Counted from the stretch's first letter, positions 2,269 to 47,600 are shown. The stretch is DNA of 64,000 nucleotides from Candidatus Latescibacterota bacterium (GCA_965206595.1 OZ242214.1:6144001-6208000), one strand, 5' to 3'. Program-made: numbers and translations. Notes: generated by a model from the letters alone, not told the origin.

Positions 2269-2275
2269 GTCCAGG

Positions 2276-3340: not shown

Positions 3341-3432
3341 CTCTGGAAAGAGGGACTGGCGGCGGCCGGTCCGGCCTGATATCCAGGATCTGCCCTGTAT
3401 GCAGGTGGAAGATTCCCGGGGTGGAAGCTCGC

Positions 3433-4710: not shown

Positions 4711-4798
4711 GAGTGTCGTATCTTACTATTTTTATTGAACGTTGGTGACTTCATGGGCACCGTCCGAGTATCGCCCCGGGCTTAGAATCCGTCAAGAC

Positions 4799-6622: not shown

Positions 6623-7107
6623 TGCCGGCCACGAACGGGGGCCCAGCCGCGAAGGGGAAGCATTCCTTCTGGATGATTCCGGCGCCTGCCGCGGGGCAGC
6701 TGCGCAGCTTTGGATTACTGATGGCGGCCGCCAGCGCATGTGCAGGAGGGGGTCTGTGGTTCCTTCAGTCACAGCCGGAGGCGCTGTGGGCCGGAGGCCT
6801 GGCCGTCTGGCTGCTGGCATGCGCCATGTTCTGGCTAGGGCCGCTGCGGCCTCTCTACCTCGTCTGGATGACGCTGGCAAGAGTTCTGGGGTTCGTCAAC
6901 TCTCACCTGCTTCTTGCCCTGGTTTTCTACTCGATTTTCACCGCGTTCGGGCTGATCATGCGCTTGGTGCGCTACGATCCCCTGCAGAAAGCCGGATCCG
7001 AGGAGGTGGGGCATGACCGGATCGACAGCGGCGAAGGAGAGAGGTCCTACTGGTTGAAGCGGGAGAATCCACTGCACTCCCGCGACCATTTTCAGCGTCA
7101 ATTTTGA
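6622..7107 (+). CDS. SxtJ-family membrane protein
   Basis: ATG overlaps the carbamoyltransferase stop; LRSFGL..., PLYLVWMTLARVLGFVNSHLLLALVFY, DPL, SYW and C-terminal RQF are typical of SxtJ. This is the 3' part of track ORF 5827..7107. Confidence 0.8.
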   Translation: MPATNGGPAAKGKHSFWMIPAPAAGQLRSFGLLMAAASACAGGGLWFLQSQPEALWAGGLAVWLLACAMFWLGPLRPLYLVWMTLARVLGFVNSHLLLALVFYSIFTAFGLIMRLVRYDPLQKAGSEEVGHDRIDSGEGERSYWLKRENPLHSRDHFQRQF

Positions 7108-7185
7108 ACGCGCGAGCAGTCGTAACTGTTTCTCCAGCTTGGCTCTACGCGGGCATTGGAGGGCTGCGCGCCACCTTCGGCGCTG

Positions 7186-7777: not shown

Positions 7778-7781
7778 TTTT

Positions 7782-7868
7782 GGAGAGGTGCCTGAGTGGA
7801 CGAAAGGGGCGGTCTCGAAAACCGTTGTGGCCGTCAGGTCACCGTGGGTTCGAATCCCACCCTCTCCG
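7782..7868 (+). tRNA. tRNA-Ser(CGA)
   Basis: GGAGAGG/CCTCTCC acceptor stem, anticodon loop CTCGAAA, long variable arm, GGTTCGAATCC T-arm; CCA not encoded. Confidence 0.95.
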
Positions 7869-7933
7869 AAGATTGCATCAAAACAGAGTACCGACAGCGG
7901 CACGCAGTCGGGTCGCCGTCAAGCCGAAGCGTC

Positions 7934-8024
<91 letters not shown>

Positions 8025-8040
8025 GCATTGAGGGTTGCGT

Positions 8041-8116
8041 GGGGCAGTAGCTCAGTAGGGAGAGCGCCAGGTTCGCAATCTGGAGGTCGTGGGTTCGATT
8101 CCCATCTGCTCCACCA
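8041..8116 (+). tRNA. tRNA-Ala(CGC)
   Basis: GGGGCAG/CTGCTCC acceptor with the G3:U70 identity pair, anticodon loop TTCGCAA, ends ACCA. Confidence 0.95.
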
Positions 8117-16115: not shown

Positions 16116-16940
16116 GTGGAACGGACTGCGCCATACGATCCTGATTCTCCATCCGCGGGACGCCGACCCTGGAACGAGTGCGACGGACAGAATAAAACCA
16201 CCGTCCATGAATACCTCCTCTCCGTGCGCGATTCCCGGGGAGCCGGGTACCTGCCTCTTCTCGATCCGGACCGACTGTCCCTCGACGAGCTGGAAGCAAG
16301 GGCGGAGGCGTGCGCCGAAGTGGGTGCCGACGCGATTCTCGTCGGCACGAGCCTGATGCTGTCGACGAGCCGGAATTCCGCCCTCTTCGAGCGCTTGAAG
16401 CAGTCTGTCGACATTCCCGTCATCAGCTTTCCAGGGGATGCCAGCCAGGTCGTGTCCACCGCCGATGCCCTGCTTTTTCTCGCAATGATAAGCGGCCGCA
16501 ATCCCGAGTTGCTCATCGGCCAGCACGTGCGCGCCGCGCCGCTGCTGAAGGAGTACGGCATCGAGGTCATCCCCACGGGGTACATGCTGATAGAATCCGG
16601 GACCCTGACGTCGGCGGAGTACATGAGTTCGACGCGGCCGATGCCCAAGGCGAAGAAGGACATCGCCATGGCGCATGCCCTCGCCGCGGAATATCTCGGC
16701 ATGAAGCTGATCTACATGGACACCGGCAGCGGCGCCGGCGATTCGGTTTCCGGGCAGCTCATTACCGCGGTGGTCGACTACGTCTCCCTCCCCGTGATCG
16801 TTGGCGGCGGTATTCGGGATCCGGAGACGGTGCGGGAAAAGGTCGACTCCGGGGCGAGCTTCGTCGTGACCGGGACCGCTGTCGAAGCCGATCCTGCACG
16901 GCTTCGACAGCTGAGCGACGCCGTGCACTTTAAAGGTTGA
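16116..16940 (+). CDS. Geranylgeranylglyceryl/polyprenylglyceryl phosphate synthase (PcrB family, group II-like)
   Basis: LLDPD, FPG, ISGRNP..LIG, PTGYMLI, AHALAAEYLG, GSGA, GGGIR motifs. Confidence 0.9.
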   Translation: MERTAPYDPDSPSAGRRPWNECDGQNKTTVHEYLLSVRDSRGAGYLPLLDPDRLSLDELEARAEACAEVGADAILVGTSLMLSTSRNSALFERLKQSVDIPVISFPGDASQVVSTADALLFLAMISGRNPELLIGQHVRAAPLLKEYGIEVIPTGYMLIESGTLTSAEYMSSTRPMPKAKKDIAMAHALAAEYLGMKLIYMDTGSGAGDSVSGQLITAVVDYVSLPVIVGGGIRDPETVREKVDSGASFVVTGTAVEADPARLRQLSDAVHFKG

Positions 16941-17241: not shown

Positions 17242-19016
17242 GCGACGAAGTTCACATACTGCGAGGTATTCCGGCATCACCCGGTATCGGAATCGGGAAG
17301 GCCTTTCTCTACCGGGCGGAGTCTCCCCCCGTGGTGCGTCGCCGGGTTGCGCCACATCTTGCCGACAGCGAAGAGGATCGTTTCCTCAACGCCCTGCAGA
17401 TGGTTGGCGACGAGGTCCTGCGCACAAGACACCTCGTGGAGATCGAGCACGGGGACGACCTCGCCCAGATCTTCGATGCCCAGCTGGCCATGCTGGAAGA
17501 CGAGCAGGTCAAGGACCGAACCGTCGAGATCATTCGCAGGGAACACCTCGCCGCGGAGCCGGCCTTCGTTCAGAATATGCGATCACTGCAGGCGGCATTC
17601 GAGGATCCCGACAACGACTACCTCCGGGCCCGGGCGGCGGATGTCCGGGACATCGAGCACCAGGTGTTGATGCGCCTCCTCGGTGGTGGCCTTCACGGAC
17701 TGCACTCGTTGCGTTCCAACACGATCGTCGTCGCCCGCGACCTGTTGCCTTCCGAATCGGTGCGCCTGGGCCGCAGACTGGTCAAGGGGCTGGTTCTCGA
17801 CCAGGGGGGAGCGACGTACCACGCCGTCATCATTGCGCGCTCGCTCGGCCTGCCTTCGGTGGTCGGCACTGAGGTCGCTTCCCGATCCATCCGCTCCGGG
17901 GATCCCCTCGTCGTCGACGGCGACGAGGGCAGCGTGCACGTCTTACCGGGGGCGGAGAGGTTGCGATATTACCAGTCCGAGCTGCGCCGCCAGCACCGGC
18001 GGGAGCGCGACCTGCGCACGCGCCGGGATCTTCCGGCGACGACGCGGGACGGGACGGAGATCGACCTCATGGCCAACGTCGACCTGCAGCAGGAGGTCGA
18101 CGTCGCCCTCGAGAACGGCGCCGCCGGGGTCGGCATGTTCCGCACCGAGTTCCTCTTCATGGACCACCGCCCGCCAACGGAGGAGGAGCAGCTGGAAATC
18201 TATCGCGGCGCGGTGGAAGCAATGGCGCCACGCCCCGTCGTCATCCGCACCTTCGACCTGGGCGGGGACAAGCTCACCAGCTCGCTGGGGCCGGTTTCGG
18301 AACGCAACCCGTTCCTCGGGTTGCGGGGGATTCGTCTCTGTCTCGACAATCCGGAGTTCTTCAAGGTGCAACTGCGGGCACTCCTGCGCGCCGCGGCCGG
18401 GGCCGACCTGCGCATCCTGATTCCGATGATCACCACCCTGAACGAGTTGCGGCAGACGAAGAACCTGATCCGCGAAGCTGCACGGGAGCTGCGCGAACGG
18501 GGGCTGGAGCACTCGGCCGACTGCAAGGTCGGGATCATGGTCGAGGTGCCATCGACGGCAATCACCATAGACAGGTTCGTTCCGGAGGTCGACTTCCTGA
18601 GCCTCGGAACCAACGATCTGGTGCAGTACACCCTCGCGGTCGATCGCACGACCCCGAAAGTAGCGGATCTTTACGATCACTATGATCCAGCGGTCCTGAG
18701 GCTCATCAAGGATGTCGCGGACAGTGGCCGGCGCAACGGCGTGACGACAAGCATTTGCGGCGAGATGGCCGGGGATCCGCTGGCGGCCGTTCTCCTCCTC
18801 GGGTTGGGGGTCGAGACATTGAGTGTCAGTCCGGGGCTGATACCGGAGCTGAAGGAAGCGGTGCGGTCGATCGCGATCTCCCGGGCGCGGGAAATCGCCG
18901 CTCACTGCCTCACCCTGGAATCCGGAGCTGCAGTGCGCACCTGCCTTGAGAAAGCCTTTTCCGAAAGCGCCGTGCCGCGGCGAAAGCCACCGCGATTCCA
19001 AGAGCGGGGAGAGTGA
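17238..19016 (+). CDS. ptsI: PEP--protein phosphotransferase (enzyme I)
   Basis: [11 protein letters not shown], phospho-His in [44 protein letters not shown]. Confidence 0.95.
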
Positions 19017-19089
19017 AAGAAAACAGCCCCGGTTTCAGCGGCCGCTGGAACTTCAAAAGCGCGTCTGCGAGATTGCGAAAGGAAGAAGC

Positions 19090-20253
19090 GTGAGCAGATC
19101 CCTGTTTACTTCGGAATCGGTTTCGGAGGGACACCCGGACAAGGTGGCCGACCAGATCTCAGACGCCATCCTCGATGCCATGCTTGAGCAGGACCCCTCC
19201 TCGCGGGTGGCCTGCGAGTCGCTGGTCACGACGGGGCAGGTGGTCATTGCGGGAGAGGTGACCACTCGAGCCCAGGTCGACATCCAGGGACTGGTGCGCA
19301 AGACCATTCGAGAGATCGGCTACGACGACCCCGAATACGGGTTCGACTACCGCTCCTGCGGCATCTCGCTCGCCCTCGACCGGCAGTCTCCCGACATCTC
19401 CCAGGGGGTGGACGAAGAACAGGGGCTGCACGCGGAGATGGGTGCCGGGGACCAGGGGATGATGTTCGGATACGCCTGTCGCGAGACTTCGCAACTGATG
19501 CCGCTGCCTATCATGCTTGCGCACCAGCTGCTGCAACACCTGAGACGGCTGCGCAGACGCTCCGCGCTTCCCTACCTGAGACCGGACGCGAAATCGCAGG
19601 TGACCGTCGAGTACGTCGACGGCAGACCGAGCCGCGTCGACACTGTGGTGATATCCACACAGCACGGCCCGAAGGCATCCCACCAGTGCATTCGACGCGA
19701 CATGATCGCGCAGGTGATAAGGAAGGTGATTCCCGCGAGGCTTCTCGACCGGGACACGGTTTTTCACGTCAACCCGACCGGACGCTTCGTCGTCGGAGGT
19801 CCGCACGGCGACTGCGGGCTGACCGGTCGCAAGATCATCGTCGATACCTACGGCGGCATGTGCCCGCACGGTGGGGGAGCCTTTTCGGGAAAGGACCCGA
19901 CCAAGGTCGACCGCAGTGCCCACTACATGGCGCGCTACATCGCCAAGAATGTCGTCGCCTCCCGTCTCGCCGACCGTTGCCAGCTGCAGCTGGCCTACGC
20001 CATCGGCATCGCCGATCCGGTTTCCATCCATGTCGATACATTCGGTTCGGGGCGCCGTCCCGACGGCGAGATCGCCGACCTCGTACGCAAGGTCTTCGCC
20101 CTGACGCCGAAGGGCATTATCGAGCACTTGCGCCTGAGGCGTCCGATATTTCTGAAGACCGCCGCCTACGGCCACTTCGGTCGCTCCGGGCCGGGCTTCG
20201 CCTGGGAAAAGACCGATTGCGCCGCCGATCTGAAACAGCTGGCAAAACTGTAA
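19090..20253 (+). CDS. metK: S-adenosylmethionine synthetase
   Basis: [42 protein letters not shown] start at 19090. Confidence 0.97.
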
Positions 20254-22396: not shown

Positions 22397-23815
22397 ATGA
22401 CCGGGATACCGAAGGCCGGAATGCTTTCCATCCACTGGCGGGAAACAGCCACCGCGATGGTGCTGACGCTGGCCTTCGAAGGTTCCCTGTTCGCCCTCAG
22501 CGACACCGAACCGCGGGCGCTGGCGCTCGGGCAGGCGTACACCGCATTGGCGAGAGGGCCGGAAGCGGTCTTCTGGAATCCCGCCAACCTCGCCCTGGGC
22601 GGAGGGCCAAAATTAAAATGGGAGGTGTTTGGTGCCGGCCTGACCCTGATAACGGAAAACAACAGTTTCTCCGTCCGCACCTACAACGACAACTTCACCG
22701 ACGACACTCACAGGATCGGGACAGCCGAAAAGAAGGAGCTGCTCGGGGATATCCCCGCGGACGGATTGAGGTTCAATGCCGACCTCGTGCCGTTCATTTC
22801 CGCCGGTCTGCCCGTCAACGGGGGCATCTCCTTTCCCCTCAGGAATGGGATTCAGGCCGCGGTCACCACGAACGTCGCCTTCGGAGTGGAGGGGGAAATG
22901 CCGAAGGACATGTTCGATTTGATGTTGTTCGGCAACGAATTCGACCGCCCCTACGAAATCGCCAAGTGGGACGGGTCTTCCTGGCTAGTCGGGGGGGTGA
23001 ACTTTGCGGGGGCGAAACCCTGGATGCCCGCCAGGCTTGCCTCGCACCTGCGCGAGTTCACGGTTGGAGGGACCGTGAAGATTTCAGGAGGGGCCTACGG
23101 CGAAATCACCCGGTCCGATGGCGGCATGATCTCACGCATCCAGGGAACCGACCTGGAGGGGTTTGCGCTCGTCCGGCGCAGCGGTGGCATCGGACTCGGG
23201 GTGGACTTCGGGGTGGCCGGCGTCACCACGGACGGCAGGACCACCTTCAGCGCCGGCATGCTCAATCTTCTGGATTTCATCCGCTGGAACATCGGAGCGC
23301 GACAGGACTCGGTGTTTTCCAAGGCGACCAGCCTGCGGGTGACCCGCTTTCTCGAGCCGGACCAGGTCCGGATGAGGGACGTGCTCGAGAACGAGGACAT
23401 CGACGGCGACGGCGATCCCGATTTTCGCGAGAGCCTCAGCGAGGACGGCTTCTTTCGCTCGCTGCCGGCGATGCTGCGCGTGGGGTTCGCACACTGGCCG
23501 ATTCCCCACATGACGGTGGTCGGCAACTACGACCAGGCCTTGAGCTCCGGTTTCGGGATATCCCCGATGCCCAAGATCTCCACCGGAGCCGAGTACCGCC
23601 TGGTGCCGTGGTTTCCTACGCGAATCGGTTTGTCGATCGGGGGACGCAGCAGCAGCACCGGTGTGGGTTTCGCCTTCGGGCCGTTCAACGTCGGCCACGC
23701 GCAGCTAGAGTTTTTCGATCTCGCGCTGGTGACTCGCGGGGGATTGCTGCCGGGCTTTTCGAAAGGCTCCGCCATGTCGATCATGTTCTTCCGCTTCAAT
23801 TTCATCAATGCCTGA
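22397..23815 (+). CDS. Outer-membrane beta-barrel protein (DUF5723/FadL-PorV-like)
   Basis: Signal peptide, then PRALALGQAYTALARGPEAVFWNPANL (typical N-terminus of FadL/PorV-like barrels), amphipathic strands, GAEYRL and an aromatic C-terminal strand. Confidence 0.65.
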   Translation: MTGIPKAGMLSIHWRETATAMVLTLAFEGSLFALSDTEPRALALGQAYTALARGPEAVFWNPANLALGGGPKLKWEVFGAGLTLITENNSFSVRTYNDNFTDDTHRIGTAEKKELLGDIPADGLRFNADLVPFISAGLPVNGGISFPLRNGIQAAVTTNVAFGVEGEMPKDMFDLMLFGNEFDRPYEIAKWDGSSWLVGGVNFAGAKPWMPARLASHLREFTVGGTVKISGGAYGEITRSDGGMISRIQGTDLEGFALVRRSGGIGLGVDFGVAGVTTDGRTTFSAGMLNLLDFIRWNIGARQDSVFSKATSLRVTRFLEPDQVRMRDVLENEDIDGDGDPDFRESLSEDGFFRSLPAMLRVGFAHWPIPHMTVVGNYDQALSSGFGISPMPKISTGAEYRLVPWFPTRIGLSIGGRSSSTGVGFAFGPFNVGHAQLEFFDLALVTRGGLLPGFSKGSAMSIMFFRFNFINA

Positions 23816-23892
23816 AATCCACCGGTCCCCCTATCCCAGAAATACCAAAGCCCCCCGACACAAAATGGCGCCGAGGGCTCATAGAAATGAAC

Positions 23893-23920
23893 GAGGCCTC
23901 TGTAAAAATCCAAAGGCCTC
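23893..23920 (-). terminator. Putative intrinsic terminator downstream of the peptide precursor gene
   Basis: Minus-strand stem GAGGCCTTTG / CAGAGGCCTC with an 8-nt loop, followed by GTTCATTTCT. Confidence 0.45.
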
Positions 23921-23986
23921 GAATGTGAGAAGCGATGCTCCTCGTCAGACGGCTCCAAGACCGCGGTGCCGCCGGTGGGGGATCGC

Positions 23987-24163
23987 CTAACGGTTGGGGT
24001 TGCTCCACCAACCGGAACCGGAACCGGAACCGTCTGAAGTATCCTGCTGCCCCTGCTCGCCTGTCGTCCCGATACCGCCGCCGACCTTTTCAGCCTCGTT
24101 GTCTTCGAGGGGCTCAACCTCTGCGTCCTTCGCTTCTTCTTCGCGCTTCTTTTCTTCGCTCAT
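23987..24163 (-). CDS. Double-glycine-leader peptide precursor (58 aa)
   Basis: AGGAGGA RBS 7 nt before ATG 24163; MSEEKKREEEAKDAEVEPLEDNEAEKVGG|GIGTTGEQGQQDTSDGSGSGSGWWSNPNR. The leader end resembles the ELSDEELEAVAGG consensus; downstream of a C39 exporter. Confidence 0.85.
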   Translation of the reverse strand: MSEEKKREEEAKDAEVEPLEDNEAEKVGGGIGTTGEQGQQDTSDGSGSGSGWWSNPNR

Positions 24164-24279
24164 CGTTTCATCCTCCTGGGATTGAGTTGGTGGGGATGCC
24201 CGGTTACACAACCATCGCCAAAGTCGAGGGGGCGAACTTCTGCGGCCGCCTCTGTTTTCCGCTTCGTTTCTTTGCTCAT
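24160..24279 (-). CDS. Second small ORF (39 aa), paralog of the precursor leader lacking the GG site and core; possibly a truncated precursor
   Basis: GGGAGG RBS; MSKETKRKTEAAAEVRPLDFGDGCVTGHPHQLNPRRMKR*. The first 19 codons align with the precursor leader at protein and DNA level; the stop overlaps the precursor ATG (ATGA). Not in the ORF track. Confidence 0.7.
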   Translation of the reverse strand: MSKETKRKTEAAAEVRPLDFGDGCVTGHPHQLNPRRMKR

Positions 24280-24328
24280 TTCAACCTCCCTGGAATGAGG
24301 TCAGGGGCGATTAGGCGCTCGAATGCAC

Positions 24329-24373
24329 ACGCTATTAATAGCGTAGTAGTACACGTTTCCCCGGGATTGTCAA
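24329..24373 (-). promoter_or_regulatory. Putative promoter plus perfect 16-bp palindromic operator for the peptide genes
   Basis: TTGACA on the minus strand (24373-24368), imperfect -10 TACTAC after 16 nt, then ACGCTATTAATAGCGT (24329-24344). Confidence 0.55.
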
Positions 24374-24446
24374 GTATTTATTGGGGGCGGGGGATGAGAC
24401 ATCGAGCGACGACCGGATTGGCAGTCGAGCCGCGAAGCGAGGTGCA

Positions 24447-27378
24447 TTACCCATGCACCAGCTGCCGCCGGGAAAGGGCTGCGAAGACCCCGTCCCGTTT
24501 GATCAGCTGGTCGAAGCGGCCGCTTTCGACGATACGCCCGGCGTCGAGCACATAGATCCGGTCGACATCCCGGATCGAGCTGAGCCGGTGGGCGATCACC
24601 AGGCGGGTTACCCCGAGTTTTTTCAACGAGTCTTGAACAACGGCCTGGGCGCGATTGTCGAGCGCACTGGTGGCTTCGTCGAACAGGAGGACTCGCCGCT
24701 TGCGGGCGAGGGCGCGCGCGCGATCAGCAGCCGCTGCTTCTGTCCCACGGAAAGCCCGGTACCGCCCTCCGGCAGCACCGTGCGCATACCCATTGGCATC
24801 GCCCGGATATCCTCTTCGAGAGCGGCGGCACGCGCTGTCGCCCAGGCTTCATCCGCACTCAACGGGGACGGGCCCGCGATATTTTCGTAGATGCTGCCGG
24901 CGACAACCTGGCCGTTCTGCAGAACGACGCCCATGGGGCCGCGGACCGCGTTCAGATCGAGGCTCGAAAGATCGTGTCCGTCGAGAAACACGGTTCCGGA
25001 ATCCGGCTGCTCGAAGCCGAGCAGCAGGCGATAGATCGTCGATTTGCCGCAGCCGGACGGACCGACGAAGGCGACGTAGTCACCCTGTCTTATGCGGAAG
25101 GATATGCCGTCGATCGCCTTCGGACTTTCTGGAGAATAGCGGAAGGTCACGTTGGCGAACTCGATCTCTCCCTTGAGATCCCCCGGATCGATGCCGCCGT
25201 CCGCGGTTTCGGGACGCGCTTCGAGAATCGGCCGTACTCGCTCAAGAAGAGGGATGATCCCGACTGCTGTCGTGGCGGCAGTCGTCAGCCCGATCACCGC
25301 GCCCGTCAGCTGCCCGAACGCGGCATTGAAGGAAAGGAAGGCCGCCAGATCGAATGTCGGCTTTCCGCCACGTATGAGGGCATAGTGGACCGAGGCGAAA
25401 ATGGCGATCAGGGCAAGAGGCTGGAACATGCCGGCTACAACGTGCTGACCGGCGGCCCAGCGAAGCGCGGCCAGGCTTTCCCGTTTCTGCCCGGCGAAGC
25501 GCTGAGCCCAGCGCGCGAGTGCGTAGCTTTCGGCATTTGCAACCCGGAGCTTGGCGAGGCCGCCGATCATCTGAAAAACGAATCCATGGAGTTTTCCCTG
25601 GGTGCGGAACAGGGCGCGAAAGTGGCGAAGCTGCCCAGCGAAAGGATCCAGGTCGTGCCTGTCAAAACGAGCAGCAGGCCGCAGACACCCAGGGCCAGCG
25701 ACCAGCTGTAGTAGAACAGCAGCACCAGACTGAAGATCGAAAAGATCCCTCCCATCGCCGCCTGCACCGCAGCCCCGGTCAACGTCTGTCGGATTTCGCT
25801 GATGCCGTTTGCCCGGTTTTCGAGGTCGCCGGCGGTGAAGCGCCGAAAGAACGGCGCCGGCAGTGAGATCAGCCGGCTCCAGATCGCGGTCTGCAGGCGC
25901 TCGTCAACCCGGCCCTCGATCCTCAGCAGCGCGATTCCGCGCACGACTTCGAAGACCGCGTTGCCGAACGCGACCAACAGGAGAGCGCCCAGAGCGGCGA
26001 ACCAGAGCGGTATGTCCGCGCCGCGCGCGGGGATAATGCGGACGAGGAGCTCTCCCGTGAGGATCGGGGTCAGCAGCGCGGCGAGTCCTCCCAATACCCC
26101 CACCGCAAGCATGGCGCGCAGATCCCGCCCGCGCCGGTGCATGGAGAAGCCCAGGGCCGCCTTGCCGCTCTCGACGTGGTCGGGAAGCGGTGCGTAGAAC
26201 GTCAGCCCACCGGGTTTGAGTCCGGAGGCCATACCGTCGTCCAACGGAAAGGATGCGCCTGTTTCCGGATCCACTGCGCGGTAGGCCCCGCGACTGTCCG
26301 CAAGAATCCCGAGCGGCCTTTCGTGGCCTTCTTCCGCGGCTGCGAAGCCCACGAAGGAAGGACCATCCCGCCGCCACCAGCCCGGGGAGAGTGAAATCCA
26401 GCGCGTTCGTATGCCGGACCTGCGGGCGAGAGCCTCGATCTCTGCGAGCGGGTCGCGGGCTTCCTCCTGCCGAGGGGGGATCTGCAGCGACGCACCGCAG
26501 GATGAAGCGACCAGGGCCGCGGCCATTTGCAGCGGAGTGTGGCCACCCGTGCCGGCCGGTTCGCCGTCAGCAGTCGCCGCCATAACCCCCCCAAGGCCGC
26601 GCAGGGCCCCGGATACCGACGAGCGGCGGGCTTCATGGGCACTGCGCCGGCGTTCCTCGGAAGTCTCGGCCTCACTGAGGACGGCGAACTCGAGGACGAT
26701 CGCGCTGAAGCGGTCGAATCCGGGCCAGAGCCGCTCCGTCTGCAGGGCGGTCGGTGTATAGATCGCCGAAACCTCGGCGTCTGCGTCGATTTCGAACCAG
26801 GTCACCTCGGTGACAGGCAGCAGCGGTTCCCCCTCCGTTACGACGAGGTCGTGGCGTCCCGAAAGGCGCATCGGCGTGTTCGCAGAGACCCAGATGACGT
26901 CCATGTGCTGGGCGGAGAGGGCGGAGCCCGAGGGATAGGGCACGTCGGGATCGGCCTCGAGCAGCAGGGCGTCGCGAGGTGGAGGCCGATCGCGGACCAG
27001 GAATTCCGAGAAACTGGATATCCATTCGTCGATCCAGTTGGTCGCGGCGAGGTCGAAACTTTCCGAGGCGACACCGATGCGCTCACCTTCGACGAGGACC
27101 GCGTTCAGCGAGGGCACGGCGAGAAAGCCGAAAGTGCGCCCCGGTCGCGCCGGGTCCTCGATCCGCTCGCTGCCGAAAGCCATCTCTCCGGCCGGCACGC
27201 GGGCGACGTAGCGCCTCCTGCCGGCAACCTGGTCGGCCTTCATCTCGACGGCGAAAACGTCGAGATACCCCTGCTCGACAAAATGGACGCGCGTAGGGTC
27301 GTCCATCGAAAAGGGCCGGTTCGCCCCGGTCTCGATGCGGAGGCCGCGGATGCGCTCTATGAGCGGGACATCGGTCAT
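24447..27378 (-). CDS. NHLM/NHLP bacteriocin-system ABC transporter (cNMP-like N-terminus, TMD, NBD; TIGR03797-like), frameshifted as assembled
   Basis: Track ORFs 25567..27378 and 24623..25570 join with one extra G at ~25635 (LGQLRH). Removing 2 nt from the (GC)n run at ~24712-24722 restores ARALARKRRVLLFDEATSALD...AHRLS...LVHG* (TAA 24447). Walker A GPSGCGKST; signature LSVGQKQR. Confidence 0.85.
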
Positions 27379-27383
27379 CGCAA

Positions 27384-29575
27384 TCAGTCCGACATGACCA
27401 GGGTGCGATACAGACCGTCTTCGGCGATCAGCAGGTCATGGGTGCCGCGCTGGACGATACGGCCGCGGTCGAGAACGACGATTTCGTCAGCATCCCTTAT
27501 GGTGCTGAGCCGGTGGGCGACGATGAGGCAGGTGCAGCCGCGCTGCCGGAGCCGGTCGTCGATTTCGACCTCGGTTACCGGATCGAGCGCCGAGGTCGCC
27601 TCGTCGAGTACCAGGACCGCGGGGTTTCGCGCAAGAGCCCGGGCCAGCTCCAGGCGCTGGCGCTGGCCGCCGCTGAAATTGCGCCCGCCCTCGTCGACCG
27701 GGGAGTCGTACCTCAGGGGCCGCGCCGCGATAATTTCGTGGATTGCGGCGTCGCGCAGGGCCTGGACGATGTCTCGCTCTTCGATAGTCGGGTCCCACAG
27801 GGCGACGTTCTCGCGTACGCTCCCCTCGAAGAGGACGATATCCTGATCGACATGAGACACGGTTTCGGCAAATCGGGAGGGTGGAATGTCGTTGAAATCC
27901 TCGCCGTCGATACGAACGCTTCCGGACCAGGGCGTCAACATCCCGCAGATCAGCCTGGCAATGGTGGATTTGCCGCTGCCGGAGACCCCCACGAGCGCCA
28001 CGCGTCTGCCCGGCGGGATCGACAAGGTGAAATCCTCGATCAGGGGCGGCCCCATGGAATTGTACCCGAAGGTGACTTTGTCGAGTTCGACGAAGCCGCG
28101 CGGGGCGGGGGCGGGGGCGGACATGTCCGGCTCGCGTTCGTTGACGCCTCGATACGTGCGTTCGTCCGGGGAGTAGTTCAGCACGTCGTCGAGGCGGGCG
28201 ATATCCCCTTTATCATCTGGAGGTTGGCGCCGAATCGGAGGAGACCCTGCACCGGCTGCGAGAAGCTGACCGCCAGGCTCTGGAAAGCGATCAACCCGCC
28301 GATGGTGAGGGCACCTTCGAGGATGCGCAGCCCCCCGAAGCCGAGGATGGCGATAACGGTTAGCAGGGAGAGTAGCACCGGGACGACGTTGGCGAAGGTC
28401 GTAACCAGGCCGAGCCGTTGTTGAGCGTTCAGTGCGTTTGCATGAATGCCGGACCAGCGCGCGAAGAAGGCGCCATCGGTACCATTGGCCTTGAGCGTCT
28501 CGATAATCAGGATACCGTTTATCGAGACGCCGGAGACCCTGGACCGCTCCTTGAGCAGGCGGCGATTGGCATTCTCCCGGGCGCCGCCTGCAAGCCGCAG
28601 CACCAGGAGATTGACGGCGACCATGGCCAGGGCGATCAGGGTCAGCGGAACGTCGTATGAAAGCATCACCGCCGCGTAGAAGGTCATGGCCAGGGTTGAG
28701 GGCGTTGACCGCCAGCTCCCTGAGAGCAACCGCGCGACCCTGTCGTTCGACACGACCCGGCTGGTGATGTCGCCGGCATGACGCTGGCTGAAAAACAGCA
28801 TCGGCAGCGTCACCACGTGCCAGATGAATCGCGCCGTAGTGACGATGGACAGCTTGGTCTCCATGCGGGCGAGGAGGGTCCGCTGCAACCAGATCAAGGC
28901 GCCCTGAGCTGCTGCGGCCAGAGCCAGGCCGATCAGCAACGGCGCCATCCAGGCGCCGTTCTGCCGGACCAGGACATCGTCGATGAACACCTTGAGCATG
29001 GTCGGAACCGCCACGCCGGGAACGACCAGCGCCAACGTCGCCAGGGCGGCGAAGGCGAGGGGTCTCCGCGCCTGACCGAAACGGGCGTTCAGTCCTCGCA
29101 CCAGGTTCGGCCTTGCTCCGCCCCGGGTGAACCCGGGACCCGGTGCGAAACCGAAACAGACGCCCGTGAAGCTTTCATCGAACTCCTCCAGGGAGATTCG
29201 ACGAGGTCCCTCGCTCGGGTCGTTGATATAGGCTCTGTCACCCTTGATCCCCTCGAGCACGACGAAATGGTTGAACTCCCAGAAGAGGATCATCGGGAAG
29301 GGAAGGTCGAACAGACGGCTGCGAATGCTGCGGAAGCCCCGCGCGACGAGGCCGTATTCCCGGGCCGCGCGCAGGATATTGGCGGCATTGGCGCCGTCGC
29401 GCGAGACGCCGCAACGCACCCGCAGGGTCTCGAGCGGGACCCACCGGCCGTGATAGGCGAGGACCATGCCGAGGCAGGCTGCTGCGCACTCGGTGGACTC
29501 CATCTGCAGGATGGTAGGCACGGCGAGGCGGCCGCTGCGCCTCAGGTTGGGGCGGAGAGCCGCGTCCTGGCTCAA
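27384..29575 (-). CDS. NHLM/NHLP peptidase-containing ABC transporter (C39 + TMD + NBD; TIGR03796-like), frameshifted as assembled
   Basis: PTILQMESTECAAACL (catalytic Cys), FWEFNHFVV (His), YINDP (Asp), CGVSRDG. Frameshift at ~28205 (KGDIARLDDVL restored) plus a compensating pair at ~28720/28695. NBD GVSGSGKST, FSGGQRQR. Confidence 0.88.
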
Positions 29576-30819
29576 AAGGCCGAACGTCTCCTTGAACCAC
29601 GGCAGGACCAGCTCCGCGGGTGGCTGGGTGGAGACCTCGACCTCGACCTCGGCCAGGGTTTCGGGAGTGATGTCGATTCCAGCGGCCTGGGGCGAGTCCA
29701 GGCGAAACCGCTGGCGGTCGATGGGTCGAGGGTGAGCGCGACGCGGCCGGGGTAGGGAGGCCCGGCTTTCGAGAAGGTCCTTGCCAGGTCCTCGTTCTGC
29801 AGCACGGCGATCATGCCGTTGAGGCTCGCCGGGAATTCGGAGAGGCTCTCGACCGTGCCGATCATATACCCGAACTCCTCGTGCCGCGCAGTGGCCGGAG
29901 ACACCAGGGTGGGCATGCCCGCTTCGACGCGCTTGCCGTCGATAGGGGGAACGTAGATCAGCACGTCGAGACCCTCACTACCCGTCTCGATGCTGATTAC
30001 GGACTGGCCCTGGGCGAGGGTGGCGCCGACCTGCGCCTTGATCTCGGTGACGCGCCCCGATACCGGGGCCTGGATGCGCCAGGTTCTCATTACGGCCGCG
30101 AGCTCCTTTACCTGCCGTTCCGCCTCCTGGTGTTCCGCCTTCGCCAGGGTGACGCGTGCCTGGGTTTCGTTTCTGCGGAGGAGCTCCCACGCCTCCAGTT
30201 CGTCGCGACGGCGCATGGCGTCGAACAGGTTGCGCCGGGCGAGATCGAGGGCATGCTCGCTGCGCTCGACCGAAGCCCGGTTTACGATACCTCTTTCCAG
30301 CAGCGACTGATCGACTTGCAGGCGTTCGTCGGCCTTTTCGATCAGCTCGCGGCCGGTGCGCTCTAGCTCTCCCAGGCGGGCACGCTGCCTGGCGATGTTC
30401 TGCGACGCAAGTGCGTTTTCCTCCCTCGCCTCGGATTCCCGATCCTGAAGGATTCCGGCGCGTTCACCCGCCAGGGAGACGGCCCCGGAATAGCGCTCCA
30501 TGATCTCGGGGTCGAGGATCTCGGCCACGAGGTCCCCTTCGGCGGCCGCTTCCCCGACGGCGGGAAGAATCCGGGCCAGCTTGCCACCGTTGGAGGAAGC
30601 GGCGTCGAAAACCATACCGGCTCGGCTCAGGATGATCCCGTTGGCCTTCACGTAGCTGGAAACTTCCCCCCAGACCGCCCAGAGTATGACGGCAAGGGTC
30701 ATGGCGATGAGCACGCAGAGCGCCAGCCAGGCCTTGGCAGTCGTCACGAAAAGGGCGCGGTCGAGATGTTAAGGGGTTCCGAGACGTACTGTCGTGTCTT
30801 TTCCGACAGGTTTTTTCAT
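29572..30819 (-). CDS. NHLM/NHLP secretion membrane-fusion protein (HlyD family; TIGR03794-like), with in-frame stop and frameshift as assembled
   Basis: ATG 30819 gives MKKPVGKDTTVRLGTP*HLDRALFVTTAKAW (family RLSSPEQLD; TAA at 30769-30771). TM helix, coiled coil, IQAPVSGRV, EEFGYMIGTV, SGFAWT; a frameshift at ~29696 restores SPQAAGIDITPETLAEVEV...LPWFK. Confidence 0.85.
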
Positions 30820-31150
30820 GATGAAATCAATATGGTTTTAACCCGCCAACCGCATCAATCATTCCCTCTGGTGGATGTGCGCAGGGTCCTCGTGGTCAGC
30901 CTGGTGAGAAGCAGGATATTCCGCCCGATTCGATCCCGGGGCTGTACCGGCCTGTCTGAAAGGGAGTCCGAACACCTGCCAATGTGGCACTTGCATTATG
31001 CAGCAAATCGATCGATTGGTCCGAACTGAAAAATAAACAATAAGTTATGAATATCGTTCGCCTGCGGGTACGGGTTTTGTCTGAAGGAGGGCGCTGGCTT
31101 TAGCAGGTTTCGAAACAGGACGATCAAGGCGAGGATTTCAGAGGATTCAA

Positions 31151-33762
<2,612 letters not shown>

Positions 33763-40961: not shown

Positions 40962-41614
40962 ATCCCGGTTGGCAGGTCGGGTCCCTGTTTCCCCTTTCAG
41001 GGTCGAATGCAATCGGTGCTCGACATGCTCCACCATGCACTAGAATTTGCGCTGAACCGGCTTGCCGGTTGCAAGGGGAAGGGAACATCCCCTGGTGAGG
41101 GGACGGGGACGGCTTGGAGCCGGCAAACCAATAGCAACAGGGGGAGGAAACCCGCCCGGATCCTGGGGAAAATCCTGTTGACGGCACCAAATATTCGGGG
41201 TGGAAGCGTTTAGCCACTCAACCGAAAAAACCAGCGATTCTTTCCCCCAGATCAGCCGCCTGGGAGAAGAACGCGACTGCTCGCGCCAGTATCTCCCAAA
41301 CCATGTCATTTACCGAATATCAACCATATGATGTTACCGGCCGATCATAGTGGCCGAGAATCGCGATTGTCAGTATGATTGTACGCATTCTTCTGAACGA
41401 TCGGCCGCAACAGGCAGGTCTCAACCGGATTGAAAATCGTGAACGCCTTGCCTCCGCGATCTCTCACTTCTTCCTCCAGAAGGAGAACTACCTGATGGAC
41501 ACGATTGCTGCAATATTCCTTGAAATCGCTCGGAAGGCAAAATCATTGATCTGCCGTCCAAATCTGCTCGCCGCAGAGAAAATCATCCCATCCGCGACGG
41601 AAAGGCGCCGGAAA

Positions 41615-44600
41615 ATGCAAATTGCTGACAACAGAATAAACGACGCGACAACGCTCAGCGTCCGTGGCGGATGCGCCGCCATAGCCACCTTTATCCTTCT
41701 GCTCGGTACGGCCTCCTCCTGGGCGCAGACCGACTCTCGGCCGTCTTTCGGCGACAGGGCCATTTCCGACCAGGTCTGGACAGCAGACTCGGCGATCGAG
41801 CCGCTGCAGCTGCCGGAGGCTTCGGATGGCGACGGCGAGCTTTCCTATGAGCTGACCCCTCAGCCGCCTCCAGGACTGTCGTTCAACACCGCGTCGCGGA
41901 CCCTGTCCGGCACACCGACCGCCGCGGGGCGCACTACATATACCTACACCGCTACCGATGGCGACGGCGAAGAAGATTCCCGCAGTTTCACCATCGTTAT
42001 CGTCGAAGACCTGATGCCGACACTCGAAGAGGTGATGGATCGGACCTGGACCCAGGATTCGGAGATCCTGTTGCCGCTTCCGGTGGCCGAAAGCGGCAAC
42101 GGCGAGGTGACCTATGAGTTGACTCCCGAACCACCACCGGGTATGACCTTCGAATTCCGAATGGTGGAGCCCGATCCTGCCCACCATATCGCCATGGAGA
42201 AGACGTGGGTTCTGATCGGCACGCCGACCGTGCCCATGGAGGGCACCGAATACACTTATTCGGCGACGGATGCCGACGGTGACATGACTCTGATTTCCTT
42301 CGGAATCACGGTGATTGAGGACTTGATGCCGGAATTCGTCGAGGATACCGGCGCCCGGACCTCGGTCGAGGGCTTCCCGGTGGAACTGGAGTTGCCGGGG
42401 GCCATGGGCGGCAACGGCGAACTCACCTATTCGCTGTCTCCGGGGTTGCCCGGAGGGCTGGATTTCGATGCGGCCTCCCGGACGATTTCGGGCACCCCGG
42501 AGGCTCCCCAGGCCCTGGTCGAGTACACATTGACGGCCACCGACGCCGACGCCGACGCGGCGGATCTGGTTTTCTCTCTGATGGTGGAAGAAGACGTAAA
42601 TCCCGAGTTCACCGAAGAGGTGCAGAATCAGACCTGGATCCAGGACTCGGAGATTGCGGTGCTGGATTTGCCGGGTGCGGAAGGGGGTAACGGCCCCTTT
42701 GCCTATTCGATATCTCCTGAGCTTCCGACAGGGCTGACCTTTTGGGCGGGCGACCAGACGATTTTGGGCACGCCCACGGAGGTCCAGGAACGGACCATCT
42801 TTGTGTACCGGGCGGTTGACGCCGACGGCGACGGGGTGGAACTGACTTTCTCACTGGAGGTGGTCGAGGACCTTATGCCCACAATCGCCGAAGGTGTGGG
42901 GGGGCAGACCTGGACCGAAGATTTCACGGTGGAGACGCTGGTTCTACCTGAAGGTTCGGGCGGAAACGGCGAGTTGACCTACGAGCTCTCCCCGGAACTG
43001 GCACAGGGCCTGGTTTTCGATCCGGAGACGCGGACGATTTCGGGAACGCCGGTGGTTCCAAAGGAACGGACCCGCTACGTGTACCGGGCGGTTGACGTCG
43101 ACGGCGACGCCGCGGAGTTGACCTTCTCGGTGATGGTGCTGAAGGATCTGATGCCGAGCTTCCCCGAGGCCGTGCAGAACCAGACCTGGATCCAGGACTC
43201 GGAGATTGCGCCGCTGGATCTGCCGGGTGCAGAAAGTGGCAACGGGGCCATCTCCTATTCGATAATTCCCGATCTTCCCGCGGGGCTGACCTTTCAAGCG
43301 GGCGACCAGACGGTGTTGGGAACGCCGACGGAAGTCCGGGAACGCACCCTTTACGTGTACCGGGCAGTTGACGCCGACGGGGACGCGGTGGAAATGACCT
43401 TCTCGTTGGTGGTGTTGGAAGACTTGATGCCGAGCTTTGCAGAGAGCGTGGAGGCTCAGATCTGGACGGAGGATTCGCTGATCGAGCCGCTGCAGTTGCC
43501 GGCGGCCGGAGGGGGCAACGGCGCCCTGTTCTATTCCCTGTCTCCTGAGCTTCCTGCGGAGATGTCATTCGATGCGAAGACACGGACGATTTCAGGCAGG
43601 CCAACGGATCCCCATGATGAAACCGAGTACACACTGACGGCAACCGACGGCGACGGCGACCCGGTGGGGTTGGCCTTCTCCCTGACGGTGAGAAAGGATC
43701 TGATGCCGAGCTTTTCGGAAACGGTGAGGAATCAGACCTGGACGCAGGATTCGGCGGTTGAGCTGGAGTTGCCGGCGGCCGAGGGTGGCAACATCGAGTT
43801 GACCGGTGAGTTGAGATATACAATAACGCCGGCGTTGCCGGCGGGGGTGACGTTTGACGAGGGGTCGCTGACGATATCGGGCACCCCGGAGAATCCGCAG
43901 GATCTGACGCGCTACGTGTTCCGGGCGATCGACGCGGACGGGGACGTGGTGGGGCTCGCGTTTACCGTGAAGGTGTTGGAGGACCTGATGCCGAGCTTCA
44001 CCGAGAGCGTGGAGGGTCAGGTCTGGACGCAGGATTCGCCGGTTGCGCTGGCGCTTCCGGTGGGGGAGGGTGGCAACGGCGTCGACGGCGTCGAGGGTCT
44101 TCTGAGGTATACGCTGTCACCGGATCTTCCGGACGGTCTGATGTTCGAGGGTTCCCGTCAGCGCATCCGGGGCACGCCGACGGTGCCGATGGGTGAGACG
44201 ACGTTCACCTACACGGCCACGGACAACGACGGCGACGCGGTGGAGCTGACCTTCTCGCTGACGGTGCTGGAAGACCTGACGTCGAGCTTCTCGCAAGAGG
44301 TCAAGAATCAGATCTGGACGCAAGATTCGGAGGTCGAGCCGATTGTGCTGCCGGAGGCAGAGGACGGCAACCGTGAGTTAGCCTCCATGAGGTATACGGT
44401 TATCCCGGCGTTGCCGGCGGGGGTGACGTTTGACGAGGGGTCGCTGACGATATCGGGCACCCCGGAGAATCCGCAGGATCTGACGCGCTACGTGTTCCGG
44501 GCGATCGACGCGGACGGGGACGTGGTGGGGCTCGCGTTTACCGTGAAGGTGTTGGAGGACCTGATGCCGAGCTTCACCGAGAGCGTGGAGGGTCAGGTCT

Positions 44601-47600
44601 GGACGCAGGATTCGCCGGTTGCGCTGGCGCTTCCGGTGGGGGAGGGTGGCAACGGCGTCGACGGCGTCGACGGCGTCGAGGGTCTTCTGAGGTATACGCT
44701 GTCACCGGATCTTCCGGACGGTCTGATGTTCGAGGGTTCCCGTCAGCGCATCCGGGGCACGCCGACGGTGCCGATGGGTGAGACGACGTTCACCTACACG
44801 GCCACGGACAACGACGGCGACGCGGTGGAGCTGACCTTCTCGCTGACGGTGCTGGAAGACCTGACGTCGAGCTTCTCGCAAGAGGTCAAGAATCAGATCT
44901 GGACGCAAGATTCGGAGGTCGAGCCGATTGTGCTGCCGGAGGCAGAGGACGGCAACCGTGAGTTAGCCTCCATGAGGTATACGGTTATCCCGGCGTTGCC
45001 GGCGGGGGTGACGTTTGACGAGGGGTCGCTGACGATATCGGGCACCCCGGAGAATCCGCAGGATCTGACGCGCTACGTGTTCCGGGCGATCGACGCGGAC
45101 GGGGACGTGGTGGGGCTCGCGTTTACCGTGAAGGTGCTGGAGGACCTGATGCCGAGCTTCACCGAGAGCGTGGAGGGTCAGGTCTGGACGCAGGATTCGC
45201 CGGTTGCGCTGGCGCTTCCGGTGGGGGAGGGTGGCAACGGCGTCGACGGCGTCGAGGGTCTTCTGAGGTATACGCTGTCACCGGATCTTCCGGACGGTCT
45301 GATGTTCGAGGGTTCCCGTCAGCGCATCCGGGGCACGCCGACGGTGCCGATGGGTGAGACGACGTTCACCTACACGGCCACGGACAACGACGGCGACGCG
45401 GTGGAGCTGACCTTCTCGCTGACGGTGCTGGAAGACCTGACGTCGAGCTTCTCGCAAGAGGTCAAGAATCAGATCTGGACGCAAGATTCGGAGGTCGAGC
45501 CGATTGTGCTGCCGGAGGCAGAGGACGGCAACCGTGAGTTAGCCTCCATGAGGTATACGGTTATCCCGGCGTTGCCGGCGGGGGTGACGTTTGACGAGGG
45601 GTCGCTGACGATATCGGGCACCCCGGAGAATCCGCAGGATCTGACGCGCTACGTGTTCCGGGCGATCGACGCGGACGGGGACGTGGTGGGGCTCGCGTTT
45701 ACCGTGAAGGTGCTGGAGGACCTGATGCCGAGCTTCACCGAGAGCGTGGAGGGTCAGGTCTGGACGCAGGATTCGCCGGTTGCGCTGGCGCTTCCGGTGG
45801 GGGAGGGTGGCAACGGCGTCGACGGCGTCGAGGGTCTTCTGAGGTATACGCTGTCACCGGATCTTCCGGACGGTCTGATGTTCGAGGGTTCCCGTCAGCG
45901 CATCCGGGGCACGCCGACGGTGCCGATGGGTGAGACGACGTTCACCTACACGGCCACGGACAACGACGGCGACGCGGTGGAGCTGACCTTCTCGCTGACG
46001 GTGCTGGAAGACCTGACGTCGAGCTTCTCGCAAGAGGTCAAGAATCAGATCTGGACGCAAGATTCGGAGGTCGAGCCGATTGTGCTGCCGGAGGCAGAGG
46101 ACGGCAACCGTGAGTTAGCCTCCATGAGGTATACGGTTATCCCGGCGTTGCCGGCGGGGGTGACGTTTGACGAGGGGTCGCTGACGATATCGGGCACCCC
46201 GGAGAATCCGCAGGATCTGACGCGCTACGTGTTCCGGGCGATCGACGCGGACGGGGACGTGGTGGGGCTCGCGTTTACCGTGAAGGTGCTGGAGGACCTG
46301 ATGCCGAGCTTCACCGAGAGCGTGGAGGGTCAGGTCTGGACGCAGGATTCGCCGGTTGCGCTGGCGCTTCCGGTGGGGGAGGGTGGCAACGGCGTCGACG
46401 GCGTCGAGGGTCTTCTGAGGTATACGCTGTCACCGGATCTTCCGGACGGTCTGATGTTCGAGGGTTCCCGTCAGCGCATCCGGGGCACGCCGACGGTGCC
46501 GATGGGTGAGACGACGTTCACCTACACGGCCACGGACAACGACGGCGACGCGGTGGAGCTGACCTTCTCGCTGACGGTGCTGGAAGACCTGACGTCGAGC
46601 TTCTCGCAAGAGGTCAAGAATCAGATCTGGACGCAAGATTCGGAGATCGAGCCGATTGCGTTGCCGCAGGCTTCGGGTGGCAACGTGGAGTTGACCGGTG
46701 AGTTGAGGTATACGCTGACCCCCGAGCTGCCAGCAGGGGTGACGCTGAACGAGGGGACGATATCAGGCACCCCGACGGTGGCTCAGGAGCTGACCCGTTA
46801 TGTGTACCGGGCGATTGACGCGGACGGGGACGTGGCCGGGGTGGCCTTCTGGGTGGTGGTTGCGCAGGATCTGACGCCGGAGTTCACCGAAAGCGTGGAG
46901 GACCGGAACTACATCACCGATGTTGCGATTGCCGCATGGGTGCTGCCGAAAGCCACCAGTGGCAACGGCCTCCTTGTTTACACGCTGACCCCCGATTTAC
47001 CGGAGGGCCTGTCGTTCGACCCGCCGTCGCGAAAGATAACGGGAACCCCGACGGTAGCTCAGGATCGCAAGGAATACACCTATACGGCGACGGATGCCGA
47101 CGGGGACACAGGTTCGTTGACCTTCGGGCTGACCATTACACTGGCGAAGCCCACGGCGTTGAATTTACTGCCTTCTCTAGATTTGCTGGCCGGCGGCAAT
47201 GCGGTCAGTGTCAATGTAGACGGGCTGTTCAGTGGTCAGGAACTGGCCTACCAGTTCGAGTCGAGCGACACCGAGGTCGCCTCGGTGCAGCCCGACGGGG
47301 CTTCTGCCGAGGTGACGCCGAAACGTGAAGGCTCGGCCATGGTGACAGTGACGGCGACCAATTCGAGCGGATCGGCGGACATTCAGTTTTCCGTCACGGT
47401 CAGCACCGCCCCGGAAGAGCGCGCGGTGCTCAATGATGTCCTCGCCGGTCTGGCGCGGGCACGGCTGAGCAGTCTGACCGGGGTGATCGGACGTCGCTTC
47501 GAGGCCGGAGCGGCCTCACCCATGAGCGCTTCCCAGGCCTCTAGGTACGAGGCTCGCCGAGGGGCTCAGTGGTTCGATCTGGACGCGGTCCTGGGTGGCC

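Follow-up and report, generated by a model that had tools for sequence, protein, structure and literature searches.

In a stretch of 64,000 nucleotides from Candidatus Latescibacterota bacterium (GCA_965206595.1 OZ242214.1:6144001-6208000; the whole stretch is called the window, and positions are counted from its first nucleotide), the minus strand at 23.9-30.8 kb carries, in this order, genes for a HlyD-type adaptor, an ATP-binding cassette (ABC) subunit with a C39 peptidase domain (ABC1) and a second ABC subunit (ABC2), followed by a small peptide unit. The best explanation of the whole, including export of the peptide in unmodified form, is that this locus is an NHLM-type peptide secretion module which encodes its own short substrate, a 58-amino-acid (58-aa) open reading frame (ORF) at 23987-24163; we put the probability of this reading at about 0.6. 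The four genes on which it turns are the following.

23987-24163, minus strand: precursor peptide (ORF 2), 58 aa, MSEEKKREEEAKDAEVEPLEDNEAEKVGGGIGTTGEQGQQDTSDGSGSGSGWWSNPNR; AGGAGG upstream inside ORF 1, ATG overlapping the stop of ORF 1
24447-27378, minus strand: ABC2, peptidase-less ABC subunit, as three ORFs (25567-27378, 24623-25570 and 24447-24626); TIGR03797
27384-29575, minus strand: ABC1, C39-peptidase/permease/ATPase subunit, as two ORFs (28178-29575 and 27384-28184); TIGR03796
29572-30819, minus strand: HlyD-type membrane-fusion adaptor, NHLM type; TIGR03794, residues 3-353 on profile positions 16-387 of 421

An earlier reading of the window, made from the sequence alone (the sequence-only reading), had recognized the arrangement TIGR03794/TIGR03796/TIGR03797, and matches to NCBIfam and Pfam bear it out. 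The HlyD protein, whose longest ORF starts with a GTG at 30747, scores 179.8 bits against TIGR03794 (NHLP bacteriocin system secretion protein), above the NCBIfam cut-off of 156.2 bits. The two pieces of ABC1 cover positions 2-441 and 462-709 of the 710 in TIGR03796 (549.2 and 401.4 bits); the gene is split by a frameshift, and the cut-off of 853.3 bits is reached by no single ORF. For each of the three pieces of ABC2, TIGR03797 is the top family (positions 2-297, 320-602 and 632-686 of 686; 246.7, 362.8 and 81.2 bits; cut-off 709.4 bits), this gene being split by two frameshifts. Its N-terminal domain of 280 aa has no Pfam match at E <= 1 and corresponds to no known family. Among the Pfam domains found in the exporter ORFs are Peptidase_C39 in ABC1, at 5.1e-34, as well as ABC_membrane and ABC_tran. 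The catalytic residues Cys30, His103 and Asp119 of the C39 domain, already described as intact, are invariant together with Gln24 in an alignment of 36 sequences including the window. The best solved relative of the N-terminal 146 residues of ABC1 is 6mpz_A, a PCAT transporter's double-glycine motif protease domain (E 1.3e-48), behind which rank PCAT1, matched by residues 12-448 at 2.5e-36, and ComA (4ry2, 8hf4).

The precursor peptide and its probable transcription unit

Judged by its relatives, the 58-aa ORF is a genuine gene and belongs to a genuine peptide family, one that has no model in Pfam or NCBIfam. Leaders of the double-glycine type carry Gly-Gly at -2/-1, hydrophobic residues at -4, -7, -12 and -15, and are acidic. 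The leader of ORF 2 fits this pattern, with Val at -4, Ala at -7, Leu at -12 and Val at -15 relative to Gly30, and at 30 aa up to the aligned Gly-Gly it is as short as the sequence-only reading had claimed (about 29 aa). Cleavage is predicted after Gly30 and would release an acidic, Gly/Ser-rich peptide of 28 aa with a net charge of about -2 and without Cys. By a regular-expression search, the precursor is the sole ORF of the window with a Gly-Gly leader, and a profile built on the NHLP precursors of related loci found no NHLP-like ORF in the window better than E 3.7.

Relatives of the precursor were found at several levels. From 5 candidates, a word-based search of 5.8 billion proteins returned 3 proteins, ORF 2 itself and two relatives that are 86% and 81% identical, and a profile built from eight sequences, compared with 1.84 billion representatives, reached 24 clusters at E <= 1e-3, three of them at <= 1e-10, with lengths of 49-74 aa. 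Relatives of the exporter were collected from 363 pattern matches, one genome per species, of which 301 encode such relatives; 80 of the 301 were kept as loci (numbered with the prefix L). Within these 80 loci, tblastn and the profile placed members of the peptide family alongside the orthologous exporter in four cases, L007 (with two copies), L010, L011 and L014. The search for further precursors in related genomes, proposed in the sequence-only reading, was thus successful, and the pairing of precursor and exporter is conserved outside the window. The peptide of L010, which had not been used in building the profile, was recovered beside its exporter at a profile E of 5.4e-9. Between the peptides of L014 and L011, 15 synonymous stand against 7 non-synonymous codon differences over 49 codons, and this excess of synonymous changes between close relatives points to purifying selection on the precursor protein.

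In the alignment of the eight sequences (A1), Glu20, Asp21, Glu23, Ala24, Glu25, Gly29 and Gly30 are invariant. The family leader begins with Met-Ser, continues with a charged N-terminal stretch and ends in Arg-Pro-(Leu/Ile)-Glu-Asp-x-Glu-Ala-Glu-x-Val-x-Gly-Gly. In most members the core measures about 22 aa and contains Tyr/Phe-Asp-x-Trp-His, LPDGSGSG and a terminal Gly-Glu; the subfamily formed by the window peptide, P0002, P0003 and P0007 keeps Asp/Glu-Gly-Ser-Gly, with a core that ends in Trp-Trp-Ser/Thr-Asn-Pro-Asn-Arg. Pfam and NCBIfam have no model for it: matches, at chance level, came from at most 2 of 32 family members, and none of the 32 matches the NHLP (TIGR03793) or Nif11 (TIGR03798) models. 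The two small ORFs of the window likewise matched no NCBIfam family, and the four core motifs appeared in no paper of the open-access collection searched.

The precursor gene appears to belong to a peptide unit with its own promoter and operator and a hairpin at its end, made up of the following further elements.

24329-24373, minus strand: promoter-like/operator region with TTGACA (24368-24373), a weak -10 candidate (24346-24351) and a palindrome (24329-24344)
24160-24279, minus strand: small ORF 1, 39 aa; GGGAGG upstream, stop overlapping the start of ORF 2 (ATGA)
23892-23921, minus strand: terminator-like hairpin, 11-pair stem with 7 GC pairs and a T-rich tail, 65 nucleotides past the peptide stop

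On the 3' side of the ABC2 stop, TTGACA, the weak -10 element, the palindrome, GGGAGG, the 39-aa ORF, the 58-aa ORF and the hairpin thus follow one another. The proposed promoter and operator hold up in part. The TTGACA box is present, similar boxes, TTGAC(A/G), precede the homologous peptide genes of L007, L010 and L014 at similar spacing, and the palindrome is a perfect one of 16 bp, unique in the window, where 0.02 matches would be expected with up to three mismatches allowed. The -10 element must be called weak, since a strict sigma-70 scan of 23700-31200 gave no promoter. Rfam yielded no match at E <= 1 over 23700-31300. The proposed terminator is supported by the hairpin with its T-rich tail and by the fold of 23880-24000 (-51 kcal/mol, z -5.23).

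The two small ORFs had been regarded as paralogous precursors, a view which survives for the beginning of ORF 1 only. Their likeness is confined to the first 19-20 codons, where it clearly exceeds that of shuffled sequences, both for DNA (local alignment score 46 vs 16.6 +/- 2.5; 0 of 2000 shuffles reach the observed score) and for protein (49 vs 20 +/- 3.9; 0 of 5000), while standard BLASTP gives E = 2 for the pair. The remainder is unlike: ORF 1 has no Gly-Gly site, carries Asp at -2, has lost the spacing and is without the acidic Glu-Ala-Glu stretch. The 80 loci gave no homologue of ORF 1 (best tblastn E 0.010), and it has no Pfam or NCBIfam match. ORF 1 is probably a duplicated leader fragment, a relic or a coupling ORF, and not a second substrate, which leaves ORF 2 as the only credible one.

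The exporter clade, its spread and its substrates

The C39-ABC subunits of 14 of the 80 loci are 68-80% identical to that of the window, the next best reaching 49%. A tree was computed for the window and 29 of the 80 loci (L001-L018, L020, L021, L026, L027, L030, L033, L036, L052, L056, L063 and L065; L019 and the rest were left out), and in it the window and L001-L014 form one clade of 15 rows (support 100/99, stem 0.46). This clade spans five phyla, its records being titled Nitrospirales, Alpha- and Gammaproteobacteria, Arenicellales, Gemmatimonadota, Latescibacterota and Vicinamibacterales, and because several of the loci lie inside contigs of 2.4-5.8 Mb, mis-binning is unlikely. The RecA protein of the window is closest (93%) to a protein named Gemmatimonadetes; the window exporter stands outside the Gemmatimonadota/Latescibacterota subclade of the tree (100/100). 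Since the closest relatives sit in genomes of five phyla, horizontal acquisition of the module would be the simplest reading. Consistent with the mobility of such a cassette, the module of L006 has an IS66 transposase and two tyrosine integrases on its upstream side (1387-7122), and that of L012 has an IS110 transposase on its downstream side (18600-19733). No direct or inverted repeats bounding the island of the window were found, and the only tRNA genes of the window are 16 kb away from it; they form a trio, Ser-CGA, Ser-GGA and Ala-CGC, at 7781-8116 on the plus strand, upstream of dnaX.

The substrate varies by subclade. The family of the 58-aa type accompanies the exporter in the window, L007, L010, L011 and L014, other short Gly-Gly peptides are found in L006, L012 and L013, and in L002, L004, L005, L008 and L009 a true long-leader NHLP precursor with a His/Asp-rich core comes right after ABC2; for the precursor of L002, a match to Pfam NHase_alpha was confirmed.

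Two further arrangements were seen among these loci. In L002 (15291-16977), and likewise in L004, L005, L008 and L009, the NHLP core measures 23 aa and the next gene is an ORF of 416-457 aa without a Pfam match at E <= 1; in L008, a WelO5-like Fe/2OG enzyme is encoded about 2 kb beyond this ORF. The arrangement may represent an undescribed tailoring enzyme or a metal-binding peptide. In L033 (6392-7759), L041, L046, L047 and L060, records of which most bear the title Planctomycetota, the exporters (42-43% identity) come after arrays of short Gly-Gly peptides whose basic cores are rich in Lys, Gly and Pro, another uncurated substrate type.

Interruptions in the exporter genes

Because the profile matches were split, the window was compared with intact orthologues, and the lesions were mapped by frameshift-aware alignment of intact orthologue proteins (for example that of L001 for HlyD) to the window DNA, together with the raw sequence. 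As assembled, all three exporter genes, taken as intact in the sequence-only reading, are interrupted, by one in-frame TAA, four net frameshifts and one compensated pair. In the HlyD gene, the TAA at 30769-30771 takes the place of a Glu kept by 14 of 14 orthologues, within their conserved motif Pro-Glu-His-Leu-Asp-Arg; the ATG at 30819, from which the protein had been thought to start, lies upstream of this stop, and a net -1 shift is found near 29693. In ABC1, a G-run at about 28716 carries a -1 shift that is compensated about 25 nucleotides later (at about 28691), with nine residues garbled, and a net -1 shift is present in the G-run at about 28205-28212. ABC2 has net -1 shifts in a G-run at about 25637 and, by an extra GC within a GC-repeat, at about 24720. 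One neighbouring gene outside the system belongs to the same cluster of lesions.

31151-33762, plus strand: clpB, with a -1 frameshift near 31700

The clpB gene does adjoin the island as its flank, as had been said, but its matches to TIGR03346 fall in two frames (positions 1-174 and 168-852 of 853). The four net shifts, the two of the compensated pair and the one in clpB add up to seven indel events, and these, like the TAA, all lie within 24.4-31.8 kb. Outside this interval, a frame plot based on GC by codon phase showed no frame switch on the same strand without a gene boundary; about 23 kb of other window genes, among them dnaX, recA, alaS, ptsI, metK, degP, hemH and SHMT, give near end-to-end profile matches, and an ORF of 7.5 kb at 41375-48877 is uninterrupted. 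The confinement of seven indels to 7.4 kb, set against about 23 kb of clean genes, has a probability of about 5e-5 by a rough estimate from gene lengths, and is thus far from random.

The module is therefore either decaying or locally mis-assembled, and the evidence divides rather evenly, with a slight lean to consensus error. Genuine decay would make the locus a dying, horizontally acquired island and the precursor gene an orphan without an exporter, an account which falls only a little short of even odds. In its favour, the TAA is a substitution, at a Glu conserved in all 14 orthologues, and the lesions are concentrated in an accessory island, with nothing comparable elsewhere in the window. 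Furthermore, P0128, a protein of 297 aa from another assembly which is 100% identical over 63% of the query, terminates in the same out-of-frame stretch, and the shift near 28716 is thus common to both assemblies. The compensating change is not shared, and this difference between the two assemblies at an indel site 25 nucleotides further on speaks for consensus error, as do the sites of most indels, which fall in G-runs, a CC pair or a GC-repeat, all contexts typical of such error. Outside the lesions, moreover, the proteins are pristine, at 69-86% identity to intact orthologues and with all ATPase and peptidase motifs kept, and a highly conserved housekeeping neighbour, clpB, is frameshifted as well. 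ABC1 and ABC2 are each in one frame in 12 of the 14 close loci; in L013 (12200-13889), another genome of the clade, the ABC2 orthologue also switches frame, between about 12877 and 12978. Interrupted exporter genes are thus not unique to the window, which again counts against decay of this one copy.

If the lesions are real, the locus documents the loss of a module whose precursor gene survives. Either way, an annotation trap is corrected, for these three exporter genes would be called pseudogenes or fragments.

Proposed export of the peptide and comparison with known systems

By analogy with PCAT systems, as far as these are described in PMC12219008 and PMC2887384, an intact module would work as follows. 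The precursor would be made from its own promoter, and the C39 domain would recognize the amphipathic, acidic double-glycine leader of 30 aa, with the hydrophobic residues of the family at -4, -7, -12 and -15. The leader would be cut after Gly30, and the acidic peptide of 28 aa would leave the cell unmodified, by way of the two ABC subunits, the HlyD adaptor and an outer-membrane channel encoded at an unlinked site.

Several observations weigh against this reading of the locus as a module that exports its own unmodified substrate. As assembled, none of the three exporter genes could give a full-length product, so that, judged by its sequence, the module would not function here; no gene for an outer-membrane channel was identified among the window ORFs scanned. 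Near L001, which has the closest exporter, and near L003, no precursor of this family was seen. The core of the peptide is short, acidic and hydrophilic, unlike those of validated class II microcins, so that an antibacterial role is doubtful; the conserved core of the wider family (Trp-His, LPDGSGSG, terminal Gly-Glu) could equally reflect recognition by an enzyme encoded elsewhere; and the differing core end of the window subfamily also has to be counted here.

The conserved core leads to the possibility that the peptide is a RiPP (made by ribosomes, then modified after translation) altered in trans, by a tailoring enzyme encoded elsewhere in the genome, before export at this locus. This we consider unlikely. 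The wider family does have a strongly conserved core, which is unusual for unmodified bacteriocins, and in L002, L004, L005, L008 and L009 the substrates of exporters from this clade are true NHLP precursors, each followed by the above-mentioned ORF of 416-457 aa. According to the account of these systems in PMC2887384, moreover, NHLP and Nif11 precursors can sit far from their enzymes, and conservation of the leader follows the transporter and not the tailoring enzyme. Against modification in trans, the core of the window peptide has no Cys, and a scan for tailoring domains remained empty. It covered 46 window ORFs supported by GC content at third codon positions (in batches of 25 and 21, one ORF being in both) and 69 distinct ORFs from the flanks of L001, L002, L006-L008 and L010-L014 (48, 5 and 18, two having been scanned twice). 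Neither among the 46 window ORFs, in agreement with the sequence-only reading, nor among the 69 flanking ORFs were YcaO, LanM/LanB/LanC, radical SAM/SPASM, RRE or P450 domains found, so that known tailoring enzymes are not constant neighbours of homologous loci. Four of the 46 window ORFs had no match of any kind, and ORFs without a Pfam match, such as that of 416-457 aa, could still be tailoring enzymes. The flanks of the four family-bearing loci consist of unrelated housekeeping genes and have nothing in common.

Individual candidates near these loci were rejected. The PhyH-family oxygenases that L010 and L014 encode some 3 kb downstream share only 24% identity, have unrelated neighbours and are missing in L007, L011 and the window. 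A GNAT gene immediately following the L014 peptide and, near the L007 peptide, a glutathione synthetase (ATP-grasp fold) are not conserved in the other loci.

Elsewhere in the window, the plus strand carries some genes worth recording. The uninterrupted ORF at 41375-48877 encodes 2500 aa, which include at least 10 domains of the He_PIG (putative Ig) type, and has internal repeats about 576-585 nucleotides apart, the same stretch of 24 residues occurring at 44291, 44876, 45452 and 46028. At 16195-16940, between alaS and ptsI, a homologue of geranylgeranylglyceryl/heptaprenylglyceryl phosphate synthase (NF003198, 7.5e-78) represents an enzyme of ether-lipid type in a bacterial housekeeping context. 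At 4742-7107, the gene for a NodU-like carbamoyltransferase (Carbam_trans_N/C) stands before an ORF whose product has an SxtJ-like domain (3.2e-8).

A class II microcin-like toxin, exported to kill competitors, is a still less probable product of the module than a peptide modified in trans. Validated class II microcins are larger than the mature peptide of 28 aa predicted here, which is moreover hydrophilic, of low complexity and negatively charged (about -2). No small membrane immunity gene was seen beside the peptide, there being no further small membrane ORF between 23815 and 24447, and a core that is near-fixed across phyla does not resemble the diversifying pattern expected of toxins. What the two have in common is the logic of export, with a C39-ABC subunit, an adaptor, a double-glycine signal and no tailoring, in the scheme given by PMC12219008, whose microcin search admitted pre-microcins of up to 150 aa. 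Because the core is short, hydrophilic, without Cys and near-fixed across the family clusters, and no immunity gene is adjacent, a role in signalling or in interactions with a community or host is favoured, with low confidence, over that of a pore-forming bacteriocin. A more far-reaching account, in which a peptide family with a near-fixed core travels with the exporter across unrelated phyla, the clade swaps between this peptide, other short Gly-Gly peptides and true NHLP precursors, and the product, not a bacteriocin, would be a shared extracellular signal or a peptide directed at a community or host, employed by distantly related members of a single community, is improbable when taken as a whole.

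That the 58-aa ORF arose by chance, with the true exporter substrate encoded elsewhere, is very improbable and largely refuted: short ORFs are common in GC-rich DNA and the closest exporter, that of L001, has no such ORF nearby, but the predicted-protein homologues at 81-86% identity, the 24 clusters matched by the profile, the position beside the exporter in four other loci, the synonymous excess and the AGGAGG box upstream all oppose it.

The module, read as one that secretes its own short peptide, can be set beside three kinds of described system. The export cassette of three genes, TIGR03794/TIGR03796/TIGR03797, was defined for NHLM systems (Haft, Basu and Mitchell, 2010; PMC2887384). The locus shares with it the three families and their order, and relatives in the same clade adjoin true NHLP precursors; it differs by a leader of 30 aa without a match to NHLP or Nif11, by the lack of thiazole/oxazole-modified microcin (TOMM) or lanthionine enzymes among the ORFs scanned, and by its interrupted genes. 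In groups IV and V of the cyanobacterial bacteriocins, the same arrangement of HlyD, a short-type C39-ABC and a peptidase-less ABC is described; the precursors there measure 28-151 aa, and each group has 15-16 that are classed as "Other", neither NHLP nor Nif11 (Wang, Fewer and Sivonen, 2011; PMC3140520). These belong to other phyla and have arrays of precursors, whereas a single conserved precursor is found here, a comparison made from the cluster descriptions in that paper. In the class II microcin scheme (for example microcin V), as outlined in PMC12219008, a PCAT, a membrane-fusion protein (MFP) and TolC export an unmodified double-glycine peptide that C39 cuts during export. A PCAT and an MFP beside a small double-glycine pre-peptide, without tailoring genes, are common to both; differences lie in the number of ABC proteins (one there, two here), in the length of the signals (15-18 aa there, 30 aa here) and in the immunity gene, which lies alongside there, while none was seen here. 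The solved structures of 6mpz, PCAT1 and ComA (4ry2, 8hf4) were compared with ABC1 at the level of sequence.

Since unmodified double-glycine export (PMC12219008) and the same exporter with precursors that are neither NHLP nor Nif11 (PMC3140520) are both set out in these papers, the suggestion of a possibly undescribed kind of system cannot be upheld; the novelty lies in the peptide family, in its joint transfer with the exporter between phyla and in the condition of the present copy. If the exporter is intact, the locus would be a compact, self-contained peptide secretion unit moving between phyla with a peptide family outside Pfam and NCBIfam, would show that NHLM exporters are not tied to long NHLP or Nif11 leaders, and would offer a tractable case for the role of short, acidic, conserved double-glycine peptides in Gram-negative communities.

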